Of a stretch of DNA of 64,000 nt, positions 49,124 through 53,951 are shown piece after piece; position 1 is the stretch's first letter; every line of letters starts with the position of its first letter. Made by a program: the position numbers and the translations under genes. Origin of the DNA: an uncultured Methylomirabilota bacterium (GTDB lineage: Bacteria > Methylomirabilota > Methylomirabilia > Methylomirabilales > 2-02-FULL-66-22); assembly GCA_963705305.1 (NCBI GenBank), contig OY970067.1, positions 4,544,001-4,608,000 of the forward strand, written 5' to 3'. Below the pieces are notes generated by a model that saw nothing but the letters and a program-made list of their open reading frames with translations, was not told the DNA's origin and made no database searches.

Positions 49124-49719
49124 GGATGCGTACTCCTTCTCTGCTGCGATATCGGTGCCGCCGATCCAGCCACCCGCGAAGTGATGTTCTTGAGAATTCG
49201 GGCGCGCTCGAGAGTCGTCTCCGCCTCCATGCCGCGCCCCCGGCTGGACAAGCTTCCCCGGGTCAGGGTCACGGGCTGATCCGTGAGGAGAACCCGCGAG
49301 GCGGCGATCCAGCGGAGCTTCTCCGTCTGCAGCTCCGTGCCCTGGTCCGACCGGGCGTGCACCCGCCCCTCGAGCGTAACGTCCTTCGTCTGGAGATCCA
49401 CCGTGACATGATCAGCCGTGCACGTCAGTTCGCCCTGCTGCGAATAGAGGATGATCTGGATGGGATGCGTGACCCGGGACAGCACCGAGTACCCCTGCTG
49501 CTCGTGCACTTCGGCGCGATCCGCTCGCACCTCCCACAATTTCTTCCCTTCGCGGGTCTCGATCATATGGATCTGTTGGAGCGTAACTTCCGGAGGGACA
49601 CTCCTGGGGGGGTTCTGGGCTGCCCCTGAGGCTGTTCCGGGGGCCCCAGGGCCGAGCGCAGCGACCATCAGGAGACCCAGGACCGACCAAACCCGGCGCC
49701 GCAACCACCACATGTCCAT
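49120..49719 (-). CDS. lptC: LPS export periplasmic protein LptC
   Basis: N-terminal TM segment, WEVRADRA, LQTEKLRW, TDQPV, GRGME. Confidence 0.88.
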   Translation of the reverse strand: MDMWWLRRRVWSVLGLLMVAALGPGAPGTASGAAQNPPRSVPPEVTLQQIHMIETREGKKLWEVRADRAEVHEQQGYSVLSRVTHPIQIILYSQQGELTCTADHVTVDLQTKDVTLEGRVHARSDQGTELQTEKLRWIAASRVLLTDQPVTLTRGSLSSRGRGMEAETTLERARILKNITSRVAGSAAPISQQRRSTHP

Positions 49720-49835
49720 TATGCTATAACACACTGACACAGGAGATGTAAATTGGAAAGAGGAGAGCGGCGGCACCATGCGTTGAGGCCCGACGTTCCG
49801 GGCTTCCCCTGCGGCGCCTGCCGGGATGCGGCGGC

Positions 49836-51320
49836 TCATTCGCCGGTTGATTCCGGTGACTCCCGCTCCCGGGAATCAAGGAGGAGCGTCTTCCGCTGTG
49901 CAAACGCCCCGGGATCCCGGGGCGTGACGTCACCCCACGCCCCGCGGCCCTGCCCGGTCGCCGAAGCCGGTCCTCGCTCCTCCTCGGATGTCGTGGGGCG
50001 ATTCAGGCAGACCACACCGGCCGCCAGCCGGTCTGCAACGCGAAGGCCCTTCTGCAGATCGCGGGTATAGATGGCCACACAAGAATCGGTCCGCGTTCGG
50101 TTGGCGAGATCGACGGCCTCCTCCGGGGAGCCCACCGCCGCGACAGCGGCCAGCGGTCCAGGGACGTCTTCCTGCGCAAGGCGCATCTTCGCCTGTACAT
50201 CCAAGAAGAGTGTGGCGGGATAGTAGAAGCCTTTGCGATACTCCCCTTCCCGCAGGACCTCCCCCCCGCACACTACCCTGGCGCCTTCCTTCAGCGCCAG
50301 CCGCGTGGATGCGTGCACCCGCTTCACCTGCGCCTCGTTGATCAGCGGGCCGACGCTCGTGTCCGCGAGCGCACCGTCACCGCAACGCAGCGCTTGGGCT
50401 TCCTTGGCCAGTCTCTCTACAAACTCCTTTGCCACCTTGCGATGCACCAGTAGGCGAGAGGACGAGGCGGCGCACTGGCCGGAGGTTCTGAAGGCGCTGC
50501 GGATGGCCCCCATCACGGCCGCCTCCACATCCGCGTCCTCCAGAACCAGAAAGGCGTTCTTGCCTCCCACCGCCAACAGCAGCCGCTTTTGTTCCGCCGC
50601 ACACGCGATGGCCACCTCGCGCCCGACCTCCGCAGATCCGACGAAAGAGACGAGAGAGACCTCGGGATGGCGCACGAGGGGCGCCCCTGCCTCTTCCCCA
50701 ACTCCATGGACGAGCTGGAGAACCGCCGCAGGCAGACCGGCCTCGAGAAAGAGCTCCACCGCGCGCGCGGCCACCATCGGACTATCCTTGGCCGGCTTGA
50801 ATACCACGGTATTCCCGACGACCAGGGCCGAGGCGATGGTGGCGATCGGGATTGCCATGGGCCGAACCCAAGGGGTGATGACGGCGACCACTCCCCGGGC
50901 CACCTGAAGATTGAGCCGCAGACCGCCCGTCGAGTCCAAGGTGGTCGCTTCGCCCGCGAGGTGCTGTCCTAGGACGCCCAGGGAGTTGAGGACACCGACT
51001 GCCTCCTGGACCTCCTCCATCGCTTCCGCGAGAATCTTCCCCGTCTCTCGTGTGATCAGCCGCGCGGTCTCCTCGCACCGCCCCCCCAGGAGCGCCGCAG
51101 CGCGAAACAGGATATCCGCCCGACGAAAGGGCGGGGTCAGTCGCCACGCCGGGAAATTCGCCCTGGCCGCCTCCGCGGCCCTGTCCACGTCCCGATGGTC
51201 CGAACGCGGGAAGCTGCCCAGGATGTCGGTCTTGTTGGCCGGGCTCAAATCGTCGTAGGTCGCACCGCTCGCCGATGCCACCCACTTCCCGTTTATGAAA
51301 TTTTCCGTGGGCTCAGCCAT
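49836..51320 (-). CDS. Aldehyde dehydrogenase-fold protein with degenerate catalytic motifs
   Basis: NFINGKW, ETGK, GNTVVFKPA, GGKNA and GPLIN are present, but PWVRP, LAVGGK, GQCAAS and EDVPGP replace the canonical motifs. Confidence 0.88.
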   Translation of the reverse strand: MAEPTENFINGKWVASASGATYDDLSPANKTDILGSFPRSDHRDVDRAAEAARANFPAWRLTPPFRRADILFRAAALLGGRCEETARLITRETGKILAEAMEEVQEAVGVLNSLGVLGQHLAGEATTLDSTGGLRLNLQVARGVVAVITPWVRPMAIPIATIASALVVGNTVVFKPAKDSPMVAARAVELFLEAGLPAAVLQLVHGVGEEAGAPLVRHPEVSLVSFVGSAEVGREVAIACAAEQKRLLLAVGGKNAFLVLEDADVEAAVMGAIRSAFRTSGQCAASSSRLLVHRKVAKEFVERLAKEAQALRCGDGALADTSVGPLINEAQVKRVHASTRLALKEGARVVCGGEVLREGEYRKGFYYPATLFLDVQAKMRLAQEDVPGPLAAVAAVGSPEEAVDLANRTRTDSCVAIYTRDLQKGLRVADRLAAGVVCLNRPTTSEEERGPASATGQGRGAWGDVTPRDPGAFAQRKTLLLDSRERESPESTGE

Positions 51321-51743
51321 CTTTCTTCCGTTCCCCTAAAGACGAAGATCGGCCGGGGAGGGGATCTCCACAATACTCTGGTTCCCACGACGGGAAGCAT
51401 CTCAGCCCCGGTGACACCCGCCGCCCGTCCTTCGGGGGCCACGCTCGGTGAAAAGGAGGGACCCATGGGGAGGCTCCCATGGGCGGTATCGATGAAGGTG
51501 AATCCCGAAGAATCTTTCGAGGGGGAGAATACCACAGCGCTGGACACAGTCGCAATGACGAAGCATGCAACCTGCGAACCAAACTGGACTACAAAAACAT
51601 GTCAAAATACTTTATATTTTCTCTCCAATCCTCATTGAAAACGAGTAAAACAAATTATACATTCTTTCCTTGACGACTCCGATTCATATGAATAATATGA
51701 GTGCCGCTGGGGGGTGCCGCCCCCAGCGTTCAACTGTCCGTAC

Positions 51744-51797
51744 TTACTTCTTTTTCTTCGGAGCAGCCTTCTTAGCGGGCTTCTTCTTCGTCGCCAC
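51744..51797 (-). CDS. Lys-rich micropeptide MATKKKPAKKAAPKKKK (17 aa)
   Basis: GTG start preceded by AAGGGAGGTGA; TAA stop; not in the ORF track. Confidence 0.65.
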   Translation of the reverse strand: MATKKKPAKKAAPKKKK

Positions 51798-51855
51798 TAG
51801 AATCACCTCCCTTCTTGTGGCTGTCTACGTTCCACCATACCACCCGGTGATTAGC

Positions 51856-51906
51856 CTACTTCTTCTTTTTCGTGGCTGTCTTCTTCGACCCCTTTTTCTT
51901 CGTCAT
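51856..51906 (-). CDS. Lys-rich micropeptide MTKKKGSKKTATKKKK (16 aa)
   Basis: ATG preceded by AAGGAGGTGA at 8-nt spacing; TAG stop; not in the ORF track. Confidence 0.65.
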   Translation of the reverse strand: MTKKKGSKKTATKKKK

Positions 51907-51945
51907 CGGGCGGGTCACCTCCTTGTGATCAGTCTCCCAGAGATA

Positions 51946-52392
51946 TCAGGCGAGCAGCGTCATCTGAGGGTTCTTCGCCCGGGTAGCCTCCAACGTGCAT
52001 TCGATGAACCGCTGCGCATCCTTGATCGCGCCCTCCACCTCATAGCGGGAGATAGGTTGACCGGGCTCCTCGAGAATTGTCTGCCACCGGCGCCGCATTC
52101 GATCAAATGCATTGATGAGTGTTCGCCTGTCCGGCCCCAGGATGGCGGCGGTCAACTCCACAACCGTCCGCTGTTGATCCCGCCCCCTGGGACGCAACCC
52201 CTCAACCATGATCACCGCGCGCGCCGCCCGTAACATACCCTGATAGGCAATGGCATACGCCCACTCGCGGTCAATACTGGCATTGGCCCGCGCTGTGGCC
52301 AAGTCCTTCGATGCGCGGGCGACGAGCGCATTGACCACCGCAAAATCGGGTTTGAACGTCCTCCACCAGCCCTTTCTCGCGCAGGTTCTCAT
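51946..52392 (-). CDS. HEPN-domain protein, apparently inactive
   Basis: ASKDLATA..., WAYAIAYQGMLRAARA, FDRMRRR; ATGA overlap with the upstream MNT gene. Confidence 0.78.
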   Translation of the reverse strand: MRTCARKGWWRTFKPDFAVVNALVARASKDLATARANASIDREWAYAIAYQGMLRAARAVIMVEGLRPRGRDQQRTVVELTAAILGPDRRTLINAFDRMRRRWQTILEEPGQPISRYEVEGAIKDAQRFIECTLEATRAKNPQMTLLA

Positions 52393-52958
52393 ACGCCATC
52401 GTCTCGTCCGATGAGCAGGACGTTCCTGTCGCCCAGGATCTCGGTCAAGAATGGATCCGCCTCTGCCCGTCGTCGATGAAAATCCCCCTCGTCGAAGACG
52501 GTGTAATTGATCTCGCGTCCCAGCTTGGCTTCCAAGCGGGTCACCGCCTCGTTCAATTCCGTCAGGTCCACACCACCCACAACCAAGAGCAAGATAGGGC
52601 CTGGACCCTCCCCGGCGGGATGGGCGTTGGTCGTGTAGAGCCACGCCTGCTGTATGCCCGCCAGCGACTTCAGGGCCTCGGCGATCGCGCCCTGCGCCCC
52701 AACCGTTTTGGCAATGATGGACTTGACCTCGGAATAGATCGCAGCAGTCTTGTTGACAGTGTAATAGCGGAGATTCCCGACCTTCTCGCTGGCGAGCAGT
52801 GTAGCCTTCTCCAGATTGTCCAGTTCCCGTTTGATACCTGAGATGTCGCGGCGGAGATCCCGAGCGATCTGCCTCACGTAGAAGCGATGCTCTGGGTGCG
52901 TGAAAAGGAGTCGCAAGATATCGACCCTGGTCTTTGATGAGAACAACCTTTCGAGCAT
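52389..52958 (-). CDS. Winged-HTH plus degenerate minimal nucleotidyltransferase (MNT) protein
   Basis: LFSSKTR..FYVRQIAR..RELDNL..GNLRYY (wHTH); C-terminal half ends LGREINYTVF...DPFL as in HTH-MNT antitoxins. Confidence 0.82.
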   Translation of the reverse strand: MLERLFSSKTRVDILRLLFTHPEHRFYVRQIARDLRRDISGIKRELDNLEKATLLASEKVGNLRYYTVNKTAAIYSEVKSIIAKTVGAQGAIAEALKSLAGIQQAWLYTTNAHPAGEGPGPILLLVVGGVDLTELNEAVTRLEAKLGREINYTVFDEGDFHRRRAEADPFLTEILGDRNVLLIGRDDGV

Positions 52959-52980
52959 TATTCGTCACCATTCGTTGAGC

Positions 52981-53010
52981 TTTATACATCGACCGTTCTT
53001 CACTTGTCAA
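52981..53010 (-). promoter_or_regulatory. sigma70-type promoter with AT-rich UP element for the MNT-HEPN-peptide unit
   Basis: TTGACA-N18-TATAAA with A/T tracts immediately upstream. Confidence 0.6.
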
Positions 53011-53453
53011 CAAAATTTTTTTGAAAAATTCACAAGCGGCTTCGGTAATCGGTATCCACACCCCCCCTTAACCGAATATACTCAATCCTGGAGAGAGTTA
53101 ACAAAGAAAGCGGGGCTTCATTGCAAACCGGACACCTTGTACGTTCCTGCTTTCTCAGGTCTGTTCCGATGAAAAATCCTCTCTACTTAGCTGTATTCTT
53201 AGGATAGAAAGTGATCGGAGAACAAAAGAGAACAGGAACAGTCTCACCTCTCATGCGGGCCGGAAAATCCAAATTCGCGAGTGCGGGGACAGAACCGTCA
53301 CAGCTCGGTCCAGCCCCGCGACAAACCCGGAGTTTGAGAATAGCGAATCCCGCATCTTGCAGATGGTCCCTCTCGCCCAAACTCCGGGGACATGGGTCAG
53401 GGGAGGCTAGCGATTTGACCCGCCGATCAATTCACCATTATACGACCGGTCCC

Positions 53454-53951
53454 GTGATCGTGCCCGGGCGACTGCGCCTGTGGTGGTGGCTGGGATTCCT
53501 CGCTCGTGCGGCGATGCTCGCCCTCCTCCTCGGCGCACCGGGTGCCAGCCCCGTGCGCGCTTCCCAGCCCCCTGATCTCCGGACCGTCTTCGCCGCCGCG
53601 CTGAATGCCTGGACCTACGGGGCGTACTGGCGCCTCTGGGGCATGGGAACCCGCGAAAGCCGGGAAGCTCTCAGCCAGGACGAGTTCGCGCGTCGGATGG
53701 ACGCCGGGAACGCAGCGCCTGTAGCCGACATGCCTGTGCAGGCGTTCCAAGTGATCTCAATGTCCGGGGATGTGGCGCTGGTCCGGGTGGGGATCCGCTT
53801 GGAAGACCGTCGGGCCCACCGTAAGGCCGCCACGGCTCGCCCATTTCTGATGCGCTTCGAGGAGGGCGCCTGGAAAGTCAACCTGTGGGACTTCGTCGGG
53901 CTGGCCGCATTCTTCCCTCCCCACTATCTTCCGGGGAGACTGCCCCGGTAG
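53454..53951 (+). CDS. Hypothetical secreted protein (possibly NTF2-like fold); start uncertain
   Basis: Signal-like hydrophobic segment ending VRA; SREALSQDEF...FEEGAWKV pattern. Confidence 0.6.
   Translation: MIVPGRLRLWWWLGFLARAAMLALLLGAPGASPVRASQPPDLRTVFAAALNAWTYGAYWRLWGMGTRESREALSQDEFARRMDAGNAAPVADMPVQAFQVISMSGDVALVRVGIRLEDRRAHRKAATARPFLMRFEEGAWKVNLWDFVGLAAFFPPHYLPGRLPR

Follow-up and report, generated by a model that had tools for sequence, protein, structure and literature searches.

Tandem lysine-rich micro-genes downstream of a helix-turn-helix/HEPN gene pair in Methylomirabilota

Are two lysine-rich reading frames of only 16 and 17 codons, which close an operon for a helix-turn-helix (HTH) protein and a HEPN-domain protein, genes in their own right, and if so, what would their products do? 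We addressed this question in a 64,000-nucleotide (nt) stretch of an uncultured Methylomirabilota bacterium (GenBank assembly GCA_963705305.1, contig OY970067.1, positions 4,544,001 to 4,608,000), which we refer to as the window and whose numbering is used throughout. Judged from their signals and their conservation, the two short open reading frames (sORFs) are very probably real, translated genes. The reading that we favour, with reasonable though far from complete confidence, is that they are genuine micro-genes, the last cistrons of the operon, and that they encode polycations acting in trans by charge.

Signals and conservation of the lysine-rich sORFs

Both sORFs are encoded on the minus strand. 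sORF1 (51856..51906; ATG at 51906, TAG ending at 51856) encodes the 16-amino-acid (aa) peptide MTKKKGSKKTATKKKK and is preceded by the Shine-Dalgarno (SD) sequence AAGGAGGTGA (51915..51924), with an 8-nt spacer to the start codon. sORF2 (51744..51797; GTG at 51797, TAA ending at 51744) encodes the 17-aa peptide (M)ATKKKPAKKAAPKKKK, and its SD sequence GGGAGGTGA (51803..51811) is separated from the GTG by 5 nt. Both SD sequences have the form (A/G)GGAGGTGA, and the two units are 67% identical over SD and reading frame. The peptides contain 9-10 lysines among their 16-17 residues, are built exclusively from K, A, T, P, and G, and carry a net charge of about +9 to +10. The initial annotation, which had described tandem lysine-rich peptides of 16-17 aa with near-perfect SD sites, thus placed both correctly; it had left out the strand, and the start codon of sORF2 had to be corrected to GTG. 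It had also put them directly downstream of the HEPN gene, and indeed sORF1 has its SD starting 21 nt past the HEPN stop codon. No terminator-like site was called between the HEPN gene and the sORFs, and visual inspection of the short spacer between HEPN and sORF1 revealed no sigma54 promoter, the motif scan for such sites having covered the loci in other phyla only.

Reading frames of this kind are rare in the genome. A six-frame scan of all stop-to-stop segments (5,645,311 bp, 66% GC) for at least seven lysines in the last 14 residues returned three frame ends, two of which are the window sORFs. The motif GGAGGTGA occurs 418 times on both strands, and in 98 cases a start codon lies 4-9 nt downstream.

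Of the 20 other genomes of the genus, 17 contain the sORF stretch by DNA search, each with a single copy of the hairpin that lies 3' of sORF2 (described below). All 18 hairpin-carrying genomes of the genus, the window's own (G000) included, have two lysine-rich sORFs just upstream of the hairpin, and one (G011) has three. These genus sORFs (n = 36) span 12-19 codons, interchange ATG, GTG, and TTG as start codons, and end in an in-frame TAA or TAG. The motif GGAGGTGA precedes 34 of them and GGGGGTGA the other two, and they differ in length by whole codons in every case. The hairpin-proximal copy, in the position of sORF2, is kept in 18/18 genomes and the distal copy, in the position of sORF1, in 17/18. 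Lysine is encoded by AAG 291 times and by AAA 22 times, and alanine by GCG (68), GCC (46), GCT (34), and GCA (5). In the codon alignment, pairwise differences are synonymous in 431 cases and non-synonymous in 382, the variation falls mostly at third positions, and the lysine blocks stay in phase across the intervening alanine, proline, and threonine codons. Copies within one genome reach an identity of 0.97-0.99 (G011, G019, G006, and G020), compared with a mean of 0.77 between genomes. Because copies are often more alike within than between genomes, this pattern indicates that the sORF copies evolve in concert, by gene conversion or repeated duplication.

Conservation extends through the order, which is Methylomirabilota by the titles of related records and whose families are abbreviated here as f1, f2, and so on. 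We surveyed it with the profile of the upstream HTH protein (PDC-M05A, see below), which detects in these genomes a class of orthologues with weaker scores (E about 1e-38 to 1e-45). The class is present in 15/15 genomes of f4, 6/6 of f5, 15/20 of f7, 1/1 of f2, and 1/2 of f6; these family tallies include two unpublished genomes (G048 and G028) that lie outside the loci read. We read 20 of the approximately 40 loci in the PDC-M05A table, 19 from the order (f2, f4, f5, f6, and f7) and one from another family of the class. All 19 order loci carry the HTH protein (52-59% identity) and the HEPN protein (38-60% identity), and all 19 have one to three lysine-rich sORFs within approximately 50-200 nt of the pair (n = 33, 12-25 codons), each preceded by AAGG[AG]GGTGA (33/33). 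The 553 residues of these 33 peptides include one acidic and no aromatic residue and are almost exclusively K, A, T, P, G, and R. Eight of the 21 arginine codons are CGN, which means that positive charge was kept through at least two base changes. At the class-level locus (L198, genome G066), tblastn found no HTH/HEPN pair and no lysine-rich sORFs were present.

Taken over genus and order, the arrangement HTH - HEPN - lysine-rich sORFs holds at 37/37 loci read, from six families of the order, and 69/69 sORFs (36 genus and 33 order-level) keep SD, start codon, and in-frame stop. The initial annotation had named beforehand, among the grounds for giving up its reading, a lack of conservation of SD and frame in relatives; both are kept across genus and order. 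These comparisons demonstrate, at the level of DNA, purifying selection on the sORF frame and on residue charge. The search that it had suggested, for SD plus lysine-rich sORFs beside HTH-MNT/HEPN genes (MNT, minimal nucleotidyltransferase), succeeds at all 37 order loci but at none of 30 paralogous PDC-M05 loci. As controls we took those PDC-M05A loci of the phylum that score best (n = 30, E 1e-58 to 1e-82); five belong to the genus of the window, and all were read on both strands over approximately 1.5 kb. Beyond the order, records titled Nitrospiria or Nitrospirae (L079, L124, and L075) have an HTH homologue (38-49% identity) ahead of such sORFs.

Two other small reading frames of the window's genome were encountered on the way. 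The third lysine-rich sORF of the scan, MAKGKGVQKRETRKPKKGTAKGSKKK (G000:C1:5453658-5453738, plus strand; locus L199), lies downstream of a transposase-like ORF; of the 20 other genus genomes, three (G013, G014, and G005) have DNA matches that cover it, and in G006 and G007 the match is limited to approximately 30 nt of the 3' flank. Near G000:C1 3104075 (plus strand; locus L200) there is an ORF of a size that escapes annotation, MGSVVKKRRKKIAKHKYKKLLKRTRHQRRNK, which we take to resemble the small ribosomal protein bS22.

The HTH/HEPN pair, the hairpin, and the downstream slot

The operon begins at a promoter read by sequence on the minus strand (52981..53010), with TTGACA (53010..53005), an 18-nt spacer ending in TG, and TATAAA (52986..52981). 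An A/T-rich tract lies ahead of it, and an inverted repeat, GTTGA...TCAAC, flanks the -10 element. The combination of TTGACA, a TGTAT-type or TG-extended -10, the A-tract, and the inverted repeat is kept at 20/20 loci (11 from the genus and nine from other families), 12 of which matched a strict promoter regular expression. The inverted repeat in its order-wide form, GTTGA(CA)...(C)TCAAC bracketing the -10 (window 52960-53020), is a candidate operator for the HTH protein.

The first gene (52389..52958, minus) encodes a 189-aa protein with an ArsR-like winged HTH (ArsR/SmtB HTH, E = 9e-8; Pfam HTH_20 and HVO_A0114 below cut-off) and a degenerate, MNT-like C-terminal domain, and it matches PADLOC PDLC04368 (PDC-M05A) at E = 2.4e-41. 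Its TGA is overlapped by the ATG (ATGA) of the second gene (51946..52392, minus), which encodes a 148-aa HEPN-domain protein (PF05168, E = 1.7e-7; PDLC04374, PDC-M05B, E = 6.3e-11). The M05A and M05B profiles are thus both matched by adjacent genes, as PDC-M05 membership asks; typical members in the phylum score far better (E about 1e-80). The HEPN Rx4-6H RNase motif is absent; the window HEPN contains no histidine, and an invariant glutamine occupies the motif position in 20/20 orthologues. The MNT motif G[SG]x9-13 DxD/E is likewise absent from an alignment of 18 orthologues, which keep the YG(A/S)...hhhhG shape and have no conserved acidic pair; the window protein reads ILLLVV where that pair is expected, and no Pfam NTP_transf domain was detected in its residues 75-189 at E<=10. 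With both catalytic motifs missing, the pair is most likely, on sequence grounds, a non-catalytic binding or regulatory module. The label "HTH-MNT/HEPN" in the initial annotation is therefore right as to family, as the PADLOC matches attest, but should not be taken to imply catalysis by either protein.

Seventeen nucleotides after the sORF2 stop, folding predicts a GC hairpin, CGCUGGGGG-CGGCAC-CCCCCAGCG (51705..51728, minus), with a 9-bp stem, a free energy (dG) of -20 kcal/mol, and no U-run. It is identical in 17/18 genus genomes, that of the window counted, and has one loop mismatch in G011. A search allowing up to two mismatches did not find it in the 45 genomes examined from other genera of the order, and as a single-copy sequence in the genome the hairpin is ruled out as a repeated element. 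A stem core, GCUGGGGG/CCCCCAGC, is kept in f1, f2, f4, and f5 while the loop varies, the f6 stem (CACCAGGGG/CCCCUGGUG) amounts to three compensatory pairs, and f7 has a different 3' region. In f5 the conserved hairpin is followed by a second, far stronger one that has a T-run; the conserved hairpin is therefore probably more than a plain terminator, and its conservation suggests that it is specifically recognised, either as RNA or as palindromic DNA.

Adjoining the hairpin, the genus alignment reveals a conserved block (51660..51704) of G[CG]ACT[CT]ATA followed by the invariant TCGTCAAG. Read on the plus strand, it contains TTGACG (51670-51675), a gap of 17 nt, and TAATAT (51693-51698), pointing into the hairpin. 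TTGACG occurs in 18/18 genus genomes; in 15/18 it belongs to a TTGACG-N17/18-TAnnnT whose end lies 6-10 nt short of the hairpin. At the same place f4 does not keep the plus-strand promoter-like site and has TGTTATAAT in the sORF orientation instead. We rejected a hydrophobic plus-strand ORF (MSAAGG...FFFF) starting at a conserved ATGAGT, as the ATG is ATA or ATC in 5/18 genus genomes.

An AT-rich stretch (29-37% GC) on the 3' side of the hairpin leads to an aldehyde dehydrogenase (ALDH) gene (51320..49836), which is followed by lptC. The order HTH - HEPN - sORFs - ALDH holds in the 11 genus loci compared, one of which is truncated by a contig end. Across the families the gene after the module differs: f1 and f6 have an ALDH there, f4 has an acyl-CoA dehydrogenase, f5 and f2 have an ornithine cyclodeaminase (OCD)-family, Pyr2C/Pip2C-reductase-like protein, and in f7 LptC follows directly. 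As the downstream gene varies by family, the constant part is HTH - HEPN - sORFs, which is inserted ahead of the lpt genes and separated from them by a variable one-gene slot (window 49836-51320; L179-L197). For the same reason we rejected a role of the downstream gene in lysine catabolism as a general rule. The ALDH gene of the genus has a conserved promoter of its own (TTGCGA, 18 nt, TATTCT; 51555..51526, minus), and approximately 40 nt past it a conserved terminator-like hairpin with a T-rich tail, GCCCATGGGA..CCCATGGGT (51484..51461). This leader hairpin lies approximately 140 nt before the start codon, has no Rfam match, and may be part of an attenuator or a riboswitch-like leader.

Similar micro-genes in other phyla and competing readings of the locus

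Lysine-rich micro-genes are not confined to this operon. With the pattern GGAGGTGA-N3-8-RTG-GCN-RCN-AAG-AAG, applied to a single genome of each species, we retrieved at least 118 stretches with at least 121 pattern-started ORFs, at least 61 of which (from at least 58 loci) are no longer than 30 aa and at least 40% lysine. The matches listed come, by record title, from Acidobacteriota, Eisenbacteria, Chloroflexi, Dormibacterota, Nitrospirota, Methylomirabilota, Gammaproteobacteria, Verrucomicrobiota, and Fibrobacteres, and a strong GC hairpin, in many cases with a T-run, lies after nearly all of the micro-genes among them. Stand-alone look-alikes comprise a promoter, a perfect SD, 12-28 codons, and a terminator, and no HEPN gene; among the loci examined, no HTH/HEPN pair was found outside the Methylomirabilota and Nitrospirota records. 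A sigma54-type TGGCAC-N5-xTGC lies 104-161 nt upstream in 13 Eisenbacteria loci among the matches listed, and TTGAC-N16-TATATT approximately 90 nt upstream in L035, L076, and L045 (two titled Acidobacteriota and one Terriglobia). In 11 loci whose neighbours were scanned (92 ORFs), these included ppk1/ppx, sigma54 activators, PadR, ribonucleotide reductase, and LpxC, in convergent orientation or unrelated. By these sequence criteria, self-contained lysine-rich micro-genes are common.

Some of these loci form recognisable groups. Eisenbacteria loci (among them L039, L041, L043, L065, L071, L084, L088, L093, L094, L098, L100, and L107) carry nearly identical 22-aa MAAKKKAAKKK[AGV]TKKKAAKKKK micro-genes, two of which adjoin sigma54 activator genes, and share a conserved GGACCTGGCACGTCC block between stop codon and terminator. 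In L035 (titled Acidobacteriota), ppk1 and a convergent ppx/gppA flank an 18-aa lysine-rich micro-gene that has its own TTGACA-N16-TATATT promoter, and L076 has similar flanks.

How the operon might work can be outlined from its parts. Transcription would start at the sigma70-type promoter and run through the genes for the HTH/degenerate nucleotidyltransferase (NTase) and the non-catalytic HEPN protein into sORF1, sORF2, and the 3' hairpin. The SD sequences are near-perfect at both sORFs compared with GGTGA at the HTH gene, so the sORFs would be translated far above the two proteins and the peptides are expected in large excess over the pair; tandem, similar copies would add dosage. Being limited to K, A, T, P, and G, the peptides are expected to be disordered and to act by charge. 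Such polycations could coat or neutralise polyanions, whether RNA, ribosomes, DNA, or polyphosphate, and we give polyanion binding about an even chance of being how the peptides work. Translation, abundance, binding target, and control by or feedback on the HTH/HEPN pair are in this outline what we infer.

The initial annotation had seen the peptides as the likely output of the upstream regulator pair. Synteny at 37/37 loci does link the sORFs to the pair, but the same micro-genes occur without HEPN in other phyla, so the peptides are not intrinsically HEPN accessories. What speaks for an output of the pair is co-orientation and the shared strong promoter, and functional coupling beyond co-expression is, in our judgement, doubtful. 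A bolder proposal, which we offer as speculation with the odds clearly against it, is that oligolysine micro-proteins are a widespread unannotated class, captured here as the effector arm of a dead HTH-MNT/HEPN sensor pair and forming with the hairpin a new three-part system that sets the polycation level. The peptide polycation would then buffer RNA, ribosomes, or polyphosphate under stress, and the pair, the hairpin, or both would give feedback.

Quite a different role, in cis, would fall to the sORFs if they formed a lysine-sensing leader in which ribosome speed reads charged tRNA-Lys, the hairpin gates read-through into the downstream gene, and the peptide itself is irrelevant. The density of lysine codons (9-10 of 16-17), a stable hairpin within ribosome reach of the stop, and a next gene of amino-acid-catabolism type in some families (ALDH, acyl-CoA dehydrogenase, and OCD-family) are consistent with such a device. 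However, the predicted fold of 256 nt (51690-51945) contains that single stable hairpin and no antiterminator pairing, and the hairpin, lacking a U-run, was not called terminator-like. The ALDH gene has its own conserved promoter, approximately 170 nt beyond the hairpin, as well as its own leader hairpin, and the downstream gene changes from family to family, to LptC in f7. Moreover, the non-lysine positions are limited to A, T, P, and G, with arginine via CGN codons, which argues for selection on the peptide itself, and the analogues elsewhere end in strong terminators next to convergent or unrelated genes. We consider a lysine-sensing leader peptide quite unlikely. The possibility that the locus acts as an untranslated RNA element, with the (AAG)n tracts and the hairpin serving as an (ARN)n chaperone-binding or sponge RNA or as an antisense target and the ORFs being incidental, is highly improbable. 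AAG repeats fit the A-R-N triplet pattern, the hairpin sequence is conserved beyond pairing needs, and a promoter-like site is present on the plus strand. Set against this are the SD, start, and in-frame stop of every one of the 69 sORFs, lysine blocks that stay in phase while third positions vary, the lack of any Rfam match at E<=1, and a plus-strand frame that is not a gene, its ATG being lost in 5/18 genomes.

Alternatively, the peptides might complete a three-part module of toxin-antitoxin or defence-like character, as effector or neutraliser of the degenerate MNT/HEPN pair; one such case would be a toxic polycation that the pair, or an antisense RNA, keeps in check. Such a module would account for the synteny at 37/37 loci in six families and in the Nitrospiria and Nitrospirae records (L079, L124, and L075), and the putative antisense promoter-like site in 15/18 genus genomes would suit it. 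The pair also matches PDC-M05, which one report presents as a toxin-antitoxin-like candidate (PMC12988326). But the module is core and syntenic beside lptC in nearly every genome of the order, unlike patchy mobile defence genes, and the HEPN and MNT catalytic motifs are absent. The sORFs are found at 0/30 typical PDC-M05 loci and, in other phyla, without HEPN, and the peptides are not hydrophobic, unlike type I toxins. On balance we hold this explanation to be unlikely.

Several observations weigh against trans-acting micro-genes, the reading that we prefer. In one genus genome (G010) the distal copy appears frameshifted. Conservation of the hairpin and of the adjoining block exceeds what a plain terminator would need, so that RNA-level functions may share the locus, and the promoter-like site on the opposite strand may point antisense into the sORFs. 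Transcription and translation of the sORFs are predicted from sequence signals, and the binding target is deduced from charge alone. Since low-complexity lysine/alanine sequences are not testable for homology, the cross-phylum "family" may reflect convergent composition rather than common descent; its sample is moreover biased, because the search pattern presupposes an SD and M-A-[TA]-K-K.

If trans-acting micro-genes are nonetheless what the locus encodes, they matter beyond it. ORFs this short are ignored by gene callers, and if they are translated as their signals suggest, some of the cells' most abundant cationic molecules are missing from annotations and from trypsin-based proteomes. Many phyla contain similar micro-genes, equipped with promoters and terminators of their own, and the order-wide operon ties a polycation micro-gene to a defined protein pair, which makes the function of both the peptides and the non-catalytic MNT/HEPN proteins approachable by experiment.

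Comparison with known peptides and systems

Searches against existing families gave no match that would assign the peptides or their transcript. Pfam and NCBIfam returned no family for 14 peptides, both window sORFs (with N-terminal extensions) included, and Rfam nothing relevant at E<=1 over 49500-53500. No PDB chain was hit at E<=10 by two relatives' peptides (22 and 28 aa), a test weakened by composition filters, and we found no family of, or paper on, such micro-genes in the open-access literature and bioRxiv.

The gene pair resembles HepT/MntA (type VII) toxin-antitoxin systems and PDC-M05 in its order, NTase-like then HEPN, in its ATGA overlap, and in its matches to PDC-M05A and PDC-M05B. 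In a 2026 report, PDC-M05 figures as a candidate nucleotidyltransferase plus HEPN system of toxin-antitoxin-like architecture whose antiviral role is unconfirmed (PMC12988326). The window pair differs from these modules in that its HEPN protein lacks Rx4-6H, with glutamine for histidine, and its NTase-like domain lacks GS...DxD, in its N-terminal HTH fusion, and in being chromosomal, core, and syntenic across the order. Compared with typical PDC-M05 loci, 30/30 of which lack them, it has lysine-rich sORFs. By sequence, the pair is without the defining features of HepT/MntA toxin-antitoxin systems. The peptides, for their part, have no hydrophobic membrane-active stretch of the type I toxin-antitoxin kind.

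With leader-peptide attenuators (trpL, hisL, and pheL, and tnaC for catabolic genes), the sORFs share the layout of a short ORF rich in one amino acid followed by a hairpin. What sets them apart is that the hairpin has neither an alternative pairing nor a U-run, that the downstream gene is not fixed, and that the peptide composition is constrained.

Closer in character are the tiny basic ribosomal proteins (bS22, bL37, bTHX, and eL41), which are likewise shorter than 35 residues and very basic, and are often missed by annotation although highly expressed. They have conserved, arginine-rich, non-repetitive sequences and single-copy genes. The sORF peptides differ in that length and residue order vary freely and composition alone is kept. 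That such proteins can go unannotated is illustrated by bS22 and bL38, which one study reports as non-annotated ribosomal proteins in Borrelia (PMC10618245).

The H1-like polycations (AlgP of Pseudomonas, chlamydial Hc1/Hc2, and actinobacterial HU tails) have the same K/A/P/T repeats (PAKK and KKAA) as the sORF peptides, which the initial annotation had already compared to H1-like tails, and the same lack of acidic and hydrophobic residues, and by analogy charge-driven binding of DNA or polyphosphate would be expected of both. H1-like proteins have roughly 100-350 residues, often with a folded or distinct N-terminal part. The sORFs differ in that the whole gene is 12-25 codons long, stands in tandem with its own SD for each copy, and matches no family model. 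AlgP is reported at polyphosphate granules (PMC9239181), and one relative micro-gene sits between ppk1 and ppx (L035). H1-like Lys/Ala/Pro proteins and tiny basic ribosomal proteins would thus be, by analogy, the closest functional counterparts of the lysine-rich peptides.

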